DNA of 64,000 bases from IMG/VR virus record IMGVR_UViG_3300031555_001562. One strand, 5' to 3'. Under the pieces are notes generated by a model that saw only the letters and a list, made by a program, of their open reading frames with translations, was not told the origin of the DNA and made no database searches. This document shows, piece by piece, positions 38,629 to 46,844 of the stretch (position 1 is its first letter; every line of letters begins with the position of its first letter). Source of the stretch: a virus (Duplodnaviria > Caudoviricetes). Made by a program: the position numbers and the translations under genes.

Positions 38629-38780
38629 ATGGAGATCAAGGTTATCAACAATGTTCCCAATCTCAATGTCACCGTAAACCAGGCAGAAGACGGCAGCTTT
38701 GCTATCCTGCTGGCTGAAGACAAGAGAAAGGCGCTCGGTAGCGCCGAACTGGGATCCATCAAGAAGATCGGCAATCGTGA
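38629..38780 (+). pseudogene. DGR target gene 1, N-terminal 50 codons (inverted)
   Basis: AAGGAG RBS then MEIKVINNVP...LGSAELGSIKKIGNR; joins EFIVLEH upon re-inversion. Confidence 0.82.
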
Positions 38781-39245: not shown

Positions 39246-40088
39246 TCATGGCTCACCAACAAAAACCAGATCCTCGACATACTTTCTCCCGTCTCCCTTG
39301 AAGATAGGAATCTTTTTATCGATAATCCATTTAGGACGTTTATCTTCGTCTCCCTGAACCTTTATGCAACAGCTGCCACGCTTTTGATGTACAGGGAAAT
39401 CGTTCCAGTTGATACCCTTTTCCAGCATAAGCATGTCTTGCATCTGGCTCTGGGACTTGTTTTGTAACATTCCATGTGAGAAATGCGCCTGAGCTACCAT
39501 TTCCACGGAATTTCTGGTTGCATCATTCTGCCGCCACAAAACACAGTTGCAGACTTCTTCCTTTGGAATGTTGAACACACGTGCATCGAACAGAGCGCCC
39601 TTCTCAGCCGCCTTCTTGTATGCCTCGTAGTATTTGCCATTGTCCTCTTCTGAGAATGTAATATGATATCCAATCTCAGTAAGATCAATGTCAGTATTGA
39701 ACTCATAGAAAGCATTCAGATTTGCAACAAAGAATCTGTTGAACGCAAATGTAGCCATCGACGCAGCAATACTGCACATCTTCTGGATGTTGTTATCAAA
39801 CCATGCGCAGCTGTTGAGTTTCTTGTAATCCACCAGAACAAGTGTGATTTCGTCGGACTGTGTATAGCCCAAAACGCAACCTTGAATATTTTCGCATAGA
39901 TACTTCGTGGTATCCTGCATGGTGGAGATCAGCACTTCATCAAAAGGTCTTTTGAAACCTCTTGTGAAAGTGTGGAATGCCTTACCATCCAGCCGGATGA
40001 TTACTGGCATTCTGGGTACGAGATATGTACGGGTGATATACTCGTACTTTTTCATGCGATCACCCAGCGCATCTCTTTTCTTTGCCAT
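39246..40088 (-). CDS. tRNA(His) guanylyltransferase Thg1-like protein
   Basis: RMKKYE, RLDGKAFHTFT, YTQSDEI, FDAR, WRQNDATRNS and KRG motifs. Confidence 0.93.
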   Translation of the reverse strand: MAKKRDALGDRMKKYEYITRTYLVPRMPVIIRLDGKAFHTFTRGFKRPFDEVLISTMQDTTKYLCENIQGCVLGYTQSDEITLVLVDYKKLNSCAWFDNNIQKMCSIAASMATFAFNRFFVANLNAFYEFNTDIDLTEIGYHITFSEEDNGKYYEAYKKAAEKGALFDARVFNIPKEEVCNCVLWRQNDATRNSVEMVAQAHFSHGMLQNKSQSQMQDMLMLEKGINWNDFPVHQKRGSCCIKVQGDEDKRPKWIIDKKIPIFKGDGRKYVEDLVFVGEP

Positions 40089-40381
40089 ATATGCTCCTTA
40101 CGTTGTAAAGAATTCATCGACTATCGTCAGGTTCGCATTGACATCTAGAACCATATCCTTGACATAATCATTTTTGCATCTGCCCCTGTCCATCCTGAAA
40201 CAAAGAGGATTTGGTTCTGTTTCATCAACATAGTATTCTCTTCCGCAGTGATTGCATGTTTCTTTGGAATACCTATCGTCGGGAAGCTCTTTGAACTTAT
40301 AGAAATGTTGCCATGTCAAATTATATCTATTTTCATGTCCGCAGTTTGGACATCTCCAATAGCTAAAAACATCAACCCAAC

Positions 40382-41149
40382 TCATGTTTCAGCGGAATAA
40401 GGGAAAGATGGCATAAGCTCAAGCTTGAACTTGTTCTTCTCATGCATGCGGTCAATCTTTTCTTTTACAACTTCATCCTCGCATACGCCAGTACGAATGT
40501 ATTTATTCAGAACGGCATATGTAAAGCCAAAATTGTCTTCGTCAGTCTTACCACACAGACCATCAGCAGGAACCTTGTAGGCCAGATCATAAGGAAGACC
40601 ACATTCCACACCGATTGCCATAACCTCATCTGTGGTCAAATTTGACAGAGGGCTAAAATCACCGACACTATCACCATAACGAGTGGAATAGCCGATCCAA
40701 TCTTCTGACAGATTGCAAGTGTTGGCAACTCGTCCATTGCATGACTGAGATACAGCATAGAGCGTAACCATACGCAGACGTGCAGGAAGATTGATTCTGG
40801 TCTGCTCAGAAATATCGAACTTCATGTTCTGCGGATTCTTGCGATTATCGCAGATCCCACGATAAATACCATGTTCTGCATCATGGATATTGATCCACAC
40901 TCGCTTGATTCCAAGATGATCCACTACCGCAAGAGAATCATCGATATCTGCTTGTTCACCGTTGGGCATCAGAACTCCGATAACACGATCTTTACCCAGT
41001 GCTTCCACACACAGAGCAGCCACAACAGAGCTGTCCTTGCCACCGGAGATGCCGACGATAGCATTACATCCGTTACCGTTTTTCTCGAACCACTCACGGA
41101 TCCACTCAACGCACGCTTCCTTTACTTTCTTCACATCGAACTTGTACAT
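40382..41149 (-). CDS. nadE: NH3-dependent NAD+ synthetase
   Basis: GISGGKDSS, NLPARLRM, GYSTRYGD, PADGL and TDED motifs. Confidence 0.93.
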   Translation of the reverse strand: MYKFDVKKVKEACVEWIREWFEKNGNGCNAIVGISGGKDSSVVAALCVEALGKDRVIGVLMPNGEQADIDDSLAVVDHLGIKRVWINIHDAEHGIYRGICDNRKNPQNMKFDISEQTRINLPARLRMVTLYAVSQSCNGRVANTCNLSEDWIGYSTRYGDSVGDFSPLSNLTTDEVMAIGVECGLPYDLAYKVPADGLCGKTDEDNFGFTYAVLNKYIRTGVCEDEVVKEKIDRMHEKNKFKLELMPSFPYSAET

Positions 41150-41556
41150 AATTCAGATCTCACTCTCATTAGAATTCTGCCGAGTCTATTTTCACCAACT
41201 CCATGCACAGCGCCCCAAATACGGTCTCCCCAGGTATTACCCTCGACAAGAATCTCATCGCCTGTTGCCAGAAGCTTTGCTCGAAGATCAGGGTTTTGCT
41301 CGAACTTCGCCTTGCAAATTTCGTACATAACCTGGTCTTTGATCTGCTCCCAGTCTTCACGCAGCTGAACTTGTCTACCGAGTTTCTTTGCGTCAGATGG
41401 ATTCAGCTGGTGGAATTTCATGCGAATGAACTTATTGGTGGTCTTCTGTGCCTGAAATGCTGCTTCGTTATTTCTATAGGTGATGCCACCGTAAGTGACA
41501 TCACTCTCATAGAAATTACTCAGAAAGTAGAATTCGCCTTTGAACTCTCCAATCAT
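41131..41556 (-). CDS. NADAR (YbiA-like) family protein
   Basis: FLSNFY, EAAFQAQK, AKKLGR, KFEQN, LVEGN, WG and GENRLG motifs. Confidence 0.93.
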   Translation of the reverse strand: MIGEFKGEFYFLSNFYESDVTYGGITYRNNEAAFQAQKTTNKFIRMKFHQLNPSDAKKLGRQVQLREDWEQIKDQVMYEICKAKFEQNPDLRAKLLATGDEILVEGNTWGDRIWGAVHGVGENRLGRILMRVRSELCTSSM

Positions 41557-43082
41557 CAGAATTTGCCTCCATTCAGGTTTGCACGGACTTCCTGCAAGGT
41601 GTATTCCTTTACCATCTTGCCGTCCTTGAAAACAGTCTTCAGCTGGTTATCAGGATCATTGACTGCCTGTTCCCAGGTATAACCGTCCTCAAATACGTAT
41701 TCGCCATTGTTATCCAGATGGACAACACAGCATCCCTTCTGGGACTTCTTGAAGCCACCATCCTTGGGATTTTTGAAAATCGGATGGGGATCGCCGTTGA
41801 TCTCGCAGTAGGTAGCCTTGATGCAGAAGCTGAAGGTATCTCTGGTAAAAGGCTTCAACAGCTTGACCTTTCCAGTAACTTTGGTTCCGTCTTCCAAGGT
41901 AACAGTAACGTCATCAACTTCCTCAATGCACTGCATGGAGAAAGAACCAACACCCAGAGCAACATTGGAACATGCAAAGCCATTCTCCATCAGAATCTGA
42001 TAGATCTCTTCGCAACGCTGAACGGTGATGCTATCACCATAGATTGCCTTAACATGGGGATCCAACACCTTGTAGCCCTTGGAATTGATAGTGCCGCCAA
42101 ACTGATCCCAAAGCTTGAAAACAGTCTTAGTAACAACTTCAACACAATCACCGGAGTCGCCACGCATGAGCATACAACCGTTATGGTTCATGATTTCTTC
42201 CTTGGTCTGGGGCAGAACATTGTCAATAATGTTCCAATAGTCATAGGAATCCAGAACGGCAGAGAAACTTGTGTTGGGATAGATTTCGGTCAACAGACGC
42301 TTCAGAAGCGTAACCTCATCGCCGTCAACCGCATAGTTGGAACACATGACGGAATGTTCGGTACTGGGGCTACCAAATGCAACCGGCTCTTTGGTGCAGT
42401 CACAGTTATACATTTCCTCCAGATAGGGAATTGTTGGTACGGTTGCGGTATTCAGGAAAGACAGACACCATGCAGCGCCAGCCTTAGTTGCAGAATCCAG
42501 GCATTCCTCGCCACGGAAGTCAAATGCGCCCAAAGCTCTTGCACGAGGCACATTATCATCACAGGTCAGATCATAATACTTGTTTACGATCTGGCGGTAA
42601 GTATGGCCTACGGTTGCAACGATCATGGGATGCCAAATTTCAGCAGACAGTAGACTCTCAAGAGCCTGGGGAAGCCACGCAAAGTCCGGATGGGTATTGG
42701 TAATACCGAACATGGGAACATGCATGGGAACCATAGTGCCTTCAGGAAGTGCAACGATTTCGATGGGCAGATATCCCAGCTTGTGCAGCTTAGAAATCTT
42801 TTCAATTCCATACACATTCTTGCCCAGAGCGGCATCCATGACTCTGGTATAGCTTTCGATAACTTCATCGTGGGACTTCTCGAAGAACTCGGTGTTGAAG
42901 TAGTCGATCAGATAGGTTTTACAAAATGCCTGGAGGATGAACATGACCATCTTATCCCAGCGGTTAACTCTGCCCATTCTGGGAGTTGCATAGGACATGG
43001 ATTTAGTCATATTCTTTGGGAGCATTTCTGCATGAACGCCCTTGTAAAAGTCGATCAGCAGATTGGGATTAGTTCGCATCAT
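41556..43082 (-). CDS. Nicotinamide/nicotinate phosphoribosyltransferase-like protein (NAMPT/Namat-like)
   Basis: LIDFYK, FDFRG, TEHSVM, DSYD, RGDSGD, IYGDSIT, TRDT and KKSQKG motifs. Confidence 0.9.
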   Translation of the reverse strand: MMRTNPNLLIDFYKGVHAEMLPKNMTKSMSYATPRMGRVNRWDKMVMFILQAFCKTYLIDYFNTEFFEKSHDEVIESYTRVMDAALGKNVYGIEKISKLHKLGYLPIEIVALPEGTMVPMHVPMFGITNTHPDFAWLPQALESLLSAEIWHPMIVATVGHTYRQIVNKYYDLTCDDNVPRARALGAFDFRGEECLDSATKAGAAWCLSFLNTATVPTIPYLEEMYNCDCTKEPVAFGSPSTEHSVMCSNYAVDGDEVTLLKRLLTEIYPNTSFSAVLDSYDYWNIIDNVLPQTKEEIMNHNGCMLMRGDSGDCVEVVTKTVFKLWDQFGGTINSKGYKVLDPHVKAIYGDSITVQRCEEIYQILMENGFACSNVALGVGSFSMQCIEEVDDVTVTLEDGTKVTGKVKLLKPFTRDTFSFCIKATYCEINGDPHPIFKNPKDGGFKKSQKGCCVVHLDNNGEYVFEDGYTWEQAVNDPDNQLKTVFKDGKMVKEYTLQEVRANLNGGKF

Positions 43083-43917
43083 AGTTCATTACCTCGATCT
43101 TTTCGTGTTCTTTGGTGAAAATGCTGTTTGTGGTAAAAACACGGTCAACGAGTCCACTGGTCAGCAGCTCGCCGTCCAGAATTGTGTTCTCGCAGTGAGA
43201 AACATACAGATAGATTTCTTTTGCGCCCAGTTCCTTCAGCTTCTTTGCGCTATGGTAGAACGTACCGCCACGGCTGCAAATGTCATCGACGATCAGAATG
43301 CGCTTTCCGGCAATCATATCAGTCATACCGGACACATCCAGACCATTGATCTTTCCAGTAGACCAGTCACGCTTTTTGATGCCGAAAGCATACGGAATAT
43401 TAAACATGCTGGAATATCTCTTCATTGCGCCCTCATCGGGGTAGAACATCATGAGATCATTTTCGCCGGATGCAGACTTCAGCTTGTCGATTACGTTTTC
43501 AACCAACTTCTTCGGAGTGCGGATCTTGATTCTGTCAATGAGTGCTTCACTCACAGAAGAATGGGGATCCAGAACTTCAACGGAAGTAAAATCCAGCCAG
43601 TTAATGACTTCCGCAAAGCTCTTCAGAGTGAACACATCCTCTTCACTCTTAACTCTGTCCTGCCGTGCATTAGGAATGTACGGCATCTTCAGGCAGATAT
43701 TTGTGATTCCATTTCTTCTCAGATGTTTCGTGACATGGATCAGCGCCACCAGCTCTGCGTCATTCTCGTACAGCCATGTGATAGTAGCACGAGAAATATT
43801 AGTGGGGAAAGCCAGAGGCCAGAAACCATATGCCATTTCCGGACGCATCTTAATCAGCATAGTACCATCGGGGAACTTGCCAATATTTACTTCACGATCA
43901 TTTCCGAAAAGCAACAT
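43069..43917 (-). CDS. PRPP synthetase-like protein (Prs/Adps-like)
   Basis: FPDG, PYIPNARQDR, LDPHS, PDEGA, KKRD and IVDDICSRGGTF motifs. Confidence 0.9.
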   Translation of the reverse strand: MLLFGNDREVNIGKFPDGTMLIKMRPEMAYGFWPLAFPTNISRATITWLYENDAELVALIHVTKHLRRNGITNICLKMPYIPNARQDRVKSEEDVFTLKSFAEVINWLDFTSVEVLDPHSSVSEALIDRIKIRTPKKLVENVIDKLKSASGENDLMMFYPDEGAMKRYSSMFNIPYAFGIKKRDWSTGKINGLDVSGMTDMIAGKRILIVDDICSRGGTFYHSAKKLKELGAKEIYLYVSHCENTILDGELLTSGLVDRVFTTNSIFTKEHEKIEVMNYDAN

Positions 43918-43921
43918 TGCA

Positions 43922-44449
43922 TTAACCTCCGATGATGTCGATCTGGCACATGTTCATGGTATGCAGAGCTGCCTGATGGGTCTGTGGAGTAACACCAGCG
44001 CAGCAGGATGCATCCACGGCAATGTCGGTCTCAGGGTAGTTTGCCTTCAGAAGCATTGCATTGGATACAACGCAGATATCGGTGCAAAGACCGACCAGCT
44101 CGATGTACTCATAGCCGAGGCCACGAATGATCTCAGGAAGTGCAGTGCTGCCGAAAGTCAGCTTGTTCAGAGAAGCAACATGGTTGGGATGTTTCACCAG
44201 GGCGGCAAACACGTCACCATTGATCTTATGACCGTCAGTATTCTCAATGCAGTGAGAAACAGGCAGATTCTTGCCTTCTCTGGTTTCCATATAGTTGTTG
44301 AAGTGGGTATCCTGAGTAGTGATGATGTCACCATCCCAGTTGTTAATCTTTGCGATAACATTGGGAACGATTGCAACTGCCTCAGCAGTACCCAGGGAGC
44401 CGTCGATGAAGTCGTTCTGCATATCGACTACGACCAAAAGTTTCTTCAT
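43922..44449 (-). CDS. pncA: Nicotinamidase / isochorismatase-family cysteine hydrolase
   Basis: VVDMQNDF, DTH, HC, K-x-TFGS and GLCTDICV motifs. Confidence 0.88.
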   Translation of the reverse strand: MKKLLVVVDMQNDFIDGSLGTAEAVAIVPNVIAKINNWDGDIITTQDTHFNNYMETREGKNLPVSHCIENTDGHKINGDVFAALVKHPNHVASLNKLTFGSTALPEIIRGLGYEYIELVGLCTDICVVSNAMLLKANYPETDIAVDASCCAGVTPQTHQAALHTMNMCQIDIIGG

Positions 44450-46777: not shown

Positions 46778-46844
46778 AACAATCCCTCCGTTCATCTCAT
46801 TTTACCAACGTTTTACGGTTTTGTCAAGAACATTATTGCGTATA

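Follow-up and report, generated by a model that had tools for sequence, protein, structure and literature searches.

Depletion of NAD+ is among the commonest bacterial anti-phage strategies, and a set of pathways that restore the cofactor, NARP1-3, has been described since 2024. NARP1, which is found in phages SPbetaL1, FADO, Bas63 and ICP1 and in Paenibacillus foliorum, pairs the Prs-fold enzyme Adps with the Nampt-fold transferase Namat, which joins nicotinamide to ADP-ribose pyrophosphate (ADPR-PP) to yield NAD+ (bioRxiv 10.1101/2024.02.11.579819; PMC12774641; PMC13586617). NARP1-AP adds the Macro phosphatase Adpp to Adps and Namat and counters aRES, with the feeding of ADP-ribose (ADPR) established experimentally (bioRxiv 10.64898/2026.01.28.702374), and NARP2, of the vibriophage KVP40 type, combines NadV with the NMNAT/Nudix protein NatV. 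Here we analyze a 64,000-nucleotide stretch (hereafter, the window) of the IMG/VR virus record IMGVR_UViG_3300031555_001562 (Caudoviricetes), whose source genome, that of a gut phage, spans 163,674 bp and is rated 100% complete, and focus on a minus-strand, co-oriented row of five genes at positions 40382-44449 (pncA, adps-like, namat-like, NADAR and nadE). From sequence comparisons we consider it probable, though far from assured, that these genes encode a nicotinate-type, or deamidated, NARP1 in which NAD+ would be rebuilt via nicotinate, ADPR-PP and nicotinic acid adenine dinucleotide (NaAD). NARP3 (PnuC and NadR) was set aside as a possible identity, as it has no parts in common with the operon.

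The five contiguous genes proposed in the initial annotation were all recovered on the minus strand by Pfam and phrog matches: a PncA-like isochorismatase-fold protein, or nicotinamidase (43922..44449, 175 aa; Isochorismatase PF00857, 2.6e-20); an Adps-like, Prs-fold enzyme (43069..43917, 282 aa; phrog_619, 4.6e-71, with the Pfam Prs domains below threshold); a Namat-like (NAMPT-like) transferase of what we call the Ala/Ser type (41556..43082, 508 aa; phrog_448, 2.4e-156); a YbiA-like NADAR-domain protein (41131..41556, 141 aa; PF08719, 7.3e-31); and NadE, an NH3-dependent NAD synthetase (40382..41149, 255 aa; PF02540, 4e-46). A single 4-nucleotide gap is followed by overlaps of 14, 1 and 19 nucleotides, the first of these between the co-oriented adps-like and namat-like genes, and this packing suggests translational coupling of the row. 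The fold of the nicotinamide mononucleotide (NMN) and nicotinic acid mononucleotide (NaMN) adenylyltransferases (PF01467: NadD, NadR, NadM, NMNAT) gave no match in a six-frame search of the complete genome, a search that was positive in 14 of 14 control genomes, and the lack of a recognised adenylyltransferase first noticed in the window thus holds for all 163,674 bp. The locus therefore resembles NARP1 in its adjacent Prs-fold and Nampt-fold pair without an adenylyltransferase; with NARP2 it shares the use of a Nampt-fold enzyme by a phage in the context of NAD restoration, but it has a Prs-like partner and no NMNAT.

In the pathway that we favor, a host NADase would split NAD+ into ADPR and nicotinamide, and PncA would convert the nicotinamide into nicotinate and NH3. 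The Adps-like enzyme would convert ADPR, along with ATP, to ADPR-PP and AMP, from which the Namat-like transferase, through a rebuilt base pocket (Ala213, Ser240), would form NaAD and PPi with nicotinate as the second substrate and without an adenylyltransferase. NadE would finally amidate NaAD to NAD+ at the expense of NH3 and ATP and may draw on the NH3 that PncA has set free. The NADAR protein would be an accessory that, at a guess, frees ADP-ribose and feeds the pathway, in the way that NARP1 is supplied by Adpp and by the RyR-domain glycosidase. Unlike NARP1, such a system would have NaAD rather than NAD+ as the transferase product, pncA and nadE as obligate neighbours and two further enzymes to maintain. 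A nicotinate-using transferase with NadE finishing the synthesis had been put forward in the initial annotation, and the idea gains support from the transferase's affinity to Namat, the loss of a pocket aspartate, the co-occurrence pattern over 213 homologues and natural gene fusions, as detailed below.

In phmmer searches against the PDB, the transferase is closest to SPbetaL1 Namat (9w5x/9w5w, 2.4e-110; named by Foldseek as the complexes with nicotinamide and with NAD), followed by Haemophilus ducreyi NadV (2.4e-87), Xanthomonas Nampt (5e-48) and the human, mouse and rat NAMPT enzymes (about 1e-44). An AlphaFold2 model of the protein (pLDDT 94, pTM 0.92) likewise retrieves Namat as the first-ranking Foldseek match with a TM-score of 0.93; the model has no ligands and thus cannot show how nicotinate or adenine would be held. 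By sequence and predicted fold the enzyme is a relative of Namat rather than of Nampt, in agreement with the relationship envisaged at the outset.

The nicotinamide pocket of SPbetaL1 Namat comprises Phe189, Arg192, Asp215, Ala242, Arg306, Asp13' and Tyr15' (PMC12774641). The window transferase keeps Asp11, Tyr13, Phe187, Arg190, His243, Arg307 and Asp309, with His243 aligning with the catalytic, phosphorylated histidine, but differs at two pocket positions: Asp215, which hydrogen-bonds the amide and corresponds to human NAMPT Asp219, is replaced by Ala213 (codon GCA, 42444..42446, minus strand), and Ala242 by Ser240 (codon AGT, 42363..42365, minus strand). These two sites are Asp and Ala in Xanthomonas Nampt, which has GGALLQ where the window protein has GSFSMQ, so that the latter carries neither the Asp219 equivalent nor the Nampt-type GG..LLQ segment, a further difference from the NARP2 type. 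For the first site in the human enzyme, a review table lists D219S as a substrate-affinity switch, citing Khan et al. 2006, a second review citing the same study describes Asp219 as defining specificity, and the table that lists D219S gives D219A as a loss-of-activity mutant (PMC4919578, PMC7096376). The very same Asp-to-Ser change is found in 74 relatives of the window enzyme, with Ala in the latter and 101 others; unlike D219S, which is a laboratory variant of an enzyme that uses phosphoribosyl pyrophosphate (PRPP), the exchange is here natural and fixed in an entire subfamily, alongside dozens of further changes specific to that subfamily. In true nicotinate phosphoribosyltransferases of carrier bacteria, the Ser of the GTSN motif falls at the Asp215 position in a profile alignment of only 47-75% probability, and in a direct comparison with PncB the transferase shows the Pfam domain NAMPT_N and not NAPRTase_N, with profile matches to the carriers' PncB proteins again limited to that probability range.

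We collected Namat-family loci with their flanks from IMG/VR, using the window protein (80 loci) or SPbetaL1 Namat (52 loci) as queries, and from GTDB (80 loci), and scored genes located up to 5 kb from each transferase in blastp searches that used the proteins of the window. Among 213 full-length homologues, position 215 is Ala in 102 and Ser in 74, and every one of these 176 has Ser at position 242; Asp215 and Ala242 occur together in 36, and one homologue combines Glu with Ala. The 96 phage loci of the Ala/Ser type include PncA in 90, an Adps-like protein in 93, NadE in 92, Macro in 56, NADAR in 35 and an NrtR regulator in 1, and the 80 bacterial loci of that type include them in 75, 78, 69, 4, 3 and 55 cases, respectively. 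In the 35 phage loci of the Asp/Glu type, the Adps-like neighbour is retained in 34, while PncA, NadE and NrtR are found in none, Macro in 5 and NADAR in 2. Those phage Ala/Ser-type loci without pncA or nadE that were inspected end at contig ends, and the NadE genes not adjacent in some bacterial loci are assumed to lie elsewhere in those genomes. A search of 1.84 billion cluster representatives further indicates that the subfamily is large, as the best 150 clusters at 50% identity comprise about 50 with Ala/Ser and Ser242 next to 96 with Asp and Ala242.

In a FastTree phylogeny of 143 representatives, a single branch, supported at 100%, separates the Ala/Ser type from the rest, which indicates that the switch from Asp to Ala or Ser happened once. 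Independent origins of the switch, considered as a test of co-evolution, were dropped as the tree needs one change only. Linkage to pncA and nadE has nonetheless been kept across more than 45 clusters that are less than 50% identical.

Gene fusions bear on the order of the proposed steps. A natural 865-aa protein (P0069) has a Ser-type transferase and NadE in one chain; pncA lies immediately upstream of its gene, and a Prs-like gene is close by. Such a fusion points to consecutive steps and fits NaAD as the transferase product, since NadD, and not NadE, would be expected to follow an NaMN-forming enzyme. Among the long family members, P0069 is the sole true Namat-NadE fusion: the N-terminal extensions of P0040 (homing-endonuclease-like) and P0041 (low-complexity) are unrelated, and P0004, P0024, P0028 and P0038 have large internal insertions instead. 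Many Namat-family representatives (these four, P0076 and others) reach 800-1100 aa, with internal insertions that split the Pfam match and are presumably inteins or homing-endonuclease inserts.

Taken with the residue pattern, these findings bear on a reading in which the operon is an ordinary NARP1, whose transferase would join nicotinamide to ADPR-PP to give NAD+ and whose PncA and NadE would be separate activities, linked by chance and aiding nicotinate salvage in the host. Although such a reading is suggested by the closeness to Namat and the adjoining Adps-like gene, it leaves the amide-binding aspartate absent from 176 of 176 pncA/nadE-linked homologues and present in 36 of 36 unlinked ones, with the second pocket residue switching in step; it would further have a co-expressed PncA destroy the nicotinamide that the transferase needs, make little sense of a Namat-NadE fusion if the product were already NAD+, and place in the active site an alanine that is listed as inactivating in human NAMPT. 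We accordingly consider it very improbable.

The partner enzyme bears on the identity of the ribosyl donor. The Adps-like protein is 39% identical to SPbetaL1 Adps and 35% and 32% identical to the FADO and ICP1 genes, respectively (tblastn); at 282 residues it belongs to the length class of ICP1 Adps (280 aa) and is without the C-terminal PRPS module. Structural work on Adps assigns roles in ADPR binding and catalysis to Phe18, Arg87, His121, Asp161, Lys185 and Asp212/213 (PMC13586617). The window protein keeps the equivalents of ICP1 F18, R87, H121, D161, K185, D212 and D213, the catalytic lysine among them; PRPS, too, conserves these residues. The PP loop, DDICSRGGTF, resembles the DDLSSxGGTF of SPbetaL1 and FADO, and the protein has no counterpart of the 5-residue catalytic-hairpin insertion seen in the housekeeping Prs of carrier bacteria. 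In the phylogeny the Adps-like protein groups with Adps, with the housekeeping Prs of the same bacteria outside at 100% support (three Prs outgroup sequences), and the partners of Ala/Ser-type operons form one group with 88% support. By sequence, then, the Prs-like partner belongs with the validated Adps enzymes and not with housekeeping Prs, and the Adps affiliation anticipated in the initial annotation is upheld. In each of the four carrier bacteria checked there is a housekeeping Prs besides the Adps-like protein, and two of them have a canonical PncB in addition, which indicates that the transferase is not simply a PncB replacement.

The enzymes at the two ends of the proposed route are of familiar kinds. 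The best solved relative of the PncA-like protein is the pyrazinamidase/nicotinamidase of Pyrococcus horikoshii (1im5, 2.9e-13), and the alignment has matching residues at the positions that we take to be those of the catalytic triad (Asp/Lys/Cys) and of the metal ligands (Asp-His-His). The best solved relatives of NadE are the NH3-dependent NAD synthetases 2e18 (7e-33) and 3fiu (5e-27); the protein has the P-loop GISGGKDS, is covered by PF02540 from residue 11 to residue 244 of its 255 and lacks a glutaminase (CN_hydrolase) domain.

An alternative assignment of substrates turns the same genes into a salvage route of the Preiss-Handler type (PncA, PncB, NadD, NadE), which likewise enters through PncA, proceeds via nicotinate and ends with NadE: the Prs-like enzyme would make PRPP, the transferase would combine it with PncA-derived nicotinate to give NaMN, host NadD would form NaAD and the phage NadE would amidate it. 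The altered base pocket fits nicotinate use with either ribosyl donor, SPbetaL1 Namat still turns over PRPP in vitro (PMC12774641), and pncB-nadD-nadE clusters, the only kind described in the gut jumbo-phage work, are known from those phages (PMC11662467). In the window, however, there is neither a PncB-type enzyme nor NadD, and Namat-like and Adps-like proteins stand instead. The grouping of the Prs-like protein with validated Adps, as a second, divergent paralogue beside the housekeeping Prs of carriers, the ADPR-handling Macro and NADAR genes inside the operons, the fusion of the transferase to NadE rather than to an adenylyltransferase and the presence of PncB in half of the carriers checked all argue for ADPR-PP instead.

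The adenine-binding region speaks to both donors. In Namat, a "selectivity clamp" for adenine consists of a loop that bears a stacking Arg, Lys or Tyr, Arg40 in SPbetaL1, and of the helix motif GS-X-phi-X-phi-X-phi-TRD, whose positions 3 and 7 are aromatic (PMC12774641). The window transferase retains a loop of Namat length (that of Xanthomonas Nampt is 3 residues shorter) with Arg38 aligned to Arg40, and a helix start, GSFSMQ, whose Phe381 corresponds to the first aromatic, Phe392. Furthermore, phage phAss-1 (L227, OQ749652.1), a TAG-recoded gut phage, has pncA, adps, an Ala/Ser-type transferase, a 139-aa open reading frame (ORF) and nadE in a row, and its transferase carries an intact clamp motif, GAYTYQYVTRD, which shows that the base-pocket switch and an ADPR-PP clamp can coexist in one protein. 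The NAD module is not discussed in the phAss-1 paper. The 139-aa ORF (L227 5576-5995) has no Pfam match, occupies the slot that Macro or NADAR holds between transferase and NadE elsewhere and may be another accessory enzyme.

Several observations nevertheless weigh against a deamidated NARP1, some of them by lending weight to the PRPP route. The remainder of the clamp helix motif is disrupted in the window transferase, where 27 residues (385-411; 41850..41930, minus strand; alignment with SPbetaL1 Namat) are inserted between GSFSMQ and F-TRD and no aromatic stands at the Tyr396 position; DSSP strands at 385-395 and 401-411, with pLDDT about 90, predict a long beta-hairpin, and the insertion is shorter in the closest relatives, which have 8-12 extra residues, so that the window protein exceeds its 78-81% identical relatives by some 17. 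Met occupies the Arg40 site in 68 of 81 close relatives that made up the first set examined. The window enzyme has Ala, not Ser, at the site where human D219A is listed as inactive. NadD is near-universal in hosts, which makes a PRPP/NaMN route feasible. The second-best solved relative of NadE, 3fiu, is an enzyme that we take to be the NaMN-preferring "NMN synthetase" of Francisella; with ordinary NAD synthetases also among the top solved relatives, the sequence is compatible with a preference for NaAD or for NaMN, and in bacteria the NadE of the operon may simply be the housekeeping copy. The co-occurrence of residue switch and neighbours is one evolutionary event kept over deep divergence and not a series of independent events. 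Finally, the nicotinate route would consume one ATP more than NARP1 does, a cost for which no compensating benefit is apparent. On balance, ordinary salvage through host NadD, the alternative that the initial annotation had left standing, is weakened by the sequence-level comparisons and now appears unlikely, though it retains some of its force.

Returning to the NARP1-like scheme via NaAD, the NADAR gene would encode its accessory component. The protein scores 108 bits against the PF08719 cut-off of 35.1, and among solved structures its best match is E. coli YbiA (2b3w, 2.1e-21). In the four closest relatives, NADAR and NadE are encoded as one ORF of 392-402 aa (L003 11470-12648, L004 11476-12654, L132 11458-12642, L135 3107-4315), which links NADAR with the pathway; the window instead has two separate, intact genes, whose frames overlap by 19 nucleotides (41131-41149) and which differ from the fused form by a shift of frame where they meet. 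Known NADAR/YbiA enzymes are N-glycosidases, and by analogy we would guess that the protein releases ADP-ribose from adducts. The arrangement recalls NARP1-AP in that a NARP1-type core is accompanied by an ADP-ribose-processing accessory gene, and many relatives have Macro right after the transferase. Unlike NARP1-AP, the window's operon has NADAR and no Macro gene, and the Macro proteins present in 56 of the 96 related phage loci match yeast Poa1p at E-values of 0.1-0.3 only, with uncharacterised macro proteins as their best matches, so that equivalence to Adpp is not established. Overall, Macro and/or NADAR accompany 62 of the 96 phage Ala/Ser-type loci, mostly between the transferase and NadE.

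Chromosomal copies that share 70-81% identity with the window transferase occur in Lachnospiraceae, Acetatifactor, Ruminococcus albus 8, Pseudoruminococcus massiliensis and further Clostridia of gut or rumen, where pncA, adps, namat and nadE adjoin the NrtR-type Nudix/winged-helix regulator counted above; NrtR regulators respond to ADP-ribose. The module has probably been exchanged with gut Clostridia. Megablast of the 4-kb region against GenBank phages gave no match, informative results coming from protein-level comparisons only, and a NadE homologue is present in 46 of 50,697 GenBank phage records, the close ones being uncultured human-gut phages. The L135 locus (JAZQDA010000014.1), an 11-kb contig labelled as a metagenome-assembled genome of a Clostridia bacterium, encodes homologues of the window's 207-, 122- and 351-aa flanking proteins, from which it is probably a phage contig binned with bacterial sequence.

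The close identity to chromosomal copies and the regulator beside 55 of the 80 bacterial loci lend themselves to a different view of the role, with unchanged chemistry and hence overlapping with the explanation preferred here, in which the operon is a host-derived set of auxiliary metabolic genes that recycles NAD and keeps NAD+ high during infection. We regard this view as rather doubtful, though it deserves more credit than either change of substrates discussed above: the phage copies have dropped NrtR, which remains in 1 of 96 loci, and have gained Macro and/or NADAR in 62 of 96, as in the NARP1-AP that counters aRES, and canonical NARP1 is experimentally a counter-defence system. The nicotinate-type NARP1 of the window would by the same token act against NAD+-depleting defences.

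Beyond the five genes, the surroundings of the operon vary between lineages. Genes of 333, 216, 207 and 95 aa and a Thg1-like gene flank it and recur only in the closest phage relatives, which by sequence makes them lineage-specific neighbours outside the module and confines the latter to five genes. Scans for promoters and terminators returned sites no more frequent than in shuffled sequence, and the limits of the operon consequently follow from gene packing only. On pattern evidence only, a sigma-70-like near-consensus promoter (TTGACA, 17 nucleotides, TAAAAT, with TG upstream) lies at 46799-46827 and a GC-rich hairpin with a T-rich tail at 38730-38745, both on the minus strand, and together they bracket a co-oriented block containing the operon. 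The 95-aa ORF (40098-40385, minus strand) has zinc-ribbon-like Cys pairs and overlaps the end of nadE by 4 nucleotides; no homologue was found in the related loci fetched. Just downstream of the NAD module, a gene at 39246-40088 (minus strand) encodes a Thg1-like tRNA-His guanylyltransferase (PF04446, 1e-30; phrog_4717, 7e-93), which also stands just downstream of the module in the closest relatives, and RNA ligase genes adjoin it in two other phages; the loci concerned are L004 13306-14139, L132 12645-13436, L001 3538-4287 and L226 1-991 and 4211-5389. RNA-repair and NAD-repair genes may form one anti-defence neighbourhood.

Full-text searches of the literature retrieved no paper that joins NARP1 with NAD synthetase and, among the papers listed, none that joins it with NadE, PncA, nicotinamidase, NaAD or deamido-NAD and no match for NARP4, NARP5 or nicotinate ADP-ribose; NARP1 and nicotinic acid coincide in the NARP3 paper only, in passages that are generic. 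The arrangement of this operon is not mentioned in the papers on NARP1, NARP1-AP, RyDEP and NARP3. We think it somewhat likelier than its opposite, judging from sequence, that the Ala/Ser subfamily as a whole is a nicotinate ADP-ribosyltransferase catalyzing a new reaction. PncA, Adps and NadE would then complete with it a closed cycle of four enzymes, in which nicotinamide and ADP-ribose become NAD+ again and the NH3 from the PncA step is re-used; this cycle would be widespread in gut and rumen phages and NrtR-regulated in Clostridia chromosomes, with NADAR as a third kind of feeder after Adpp and RyDEP.

If correct, this model would introduce an enzyme reaction in which NaAD is made directly from ADPR-PP, and would provide a natural case of the Asp-to-Ser/Ala specificity switch so far known only from a NAMPT mutant. 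It would give a reason for the presence of pncA and nadE in gut phages and offer a simple annotation rule and testable prediction, namely Ala/Ser215 with Ser242 and pncA/nadE neighbours, for a subfamily that makes up about a third of the 150 nearest clusters at 50% identity. In addition, many gut Clostridia would then turn ADP-ribose back into NAD+ along a route that current metabolic reconstructions, with their annotation of these genes as Prs and NAMPT/NAPRT, do not contain.

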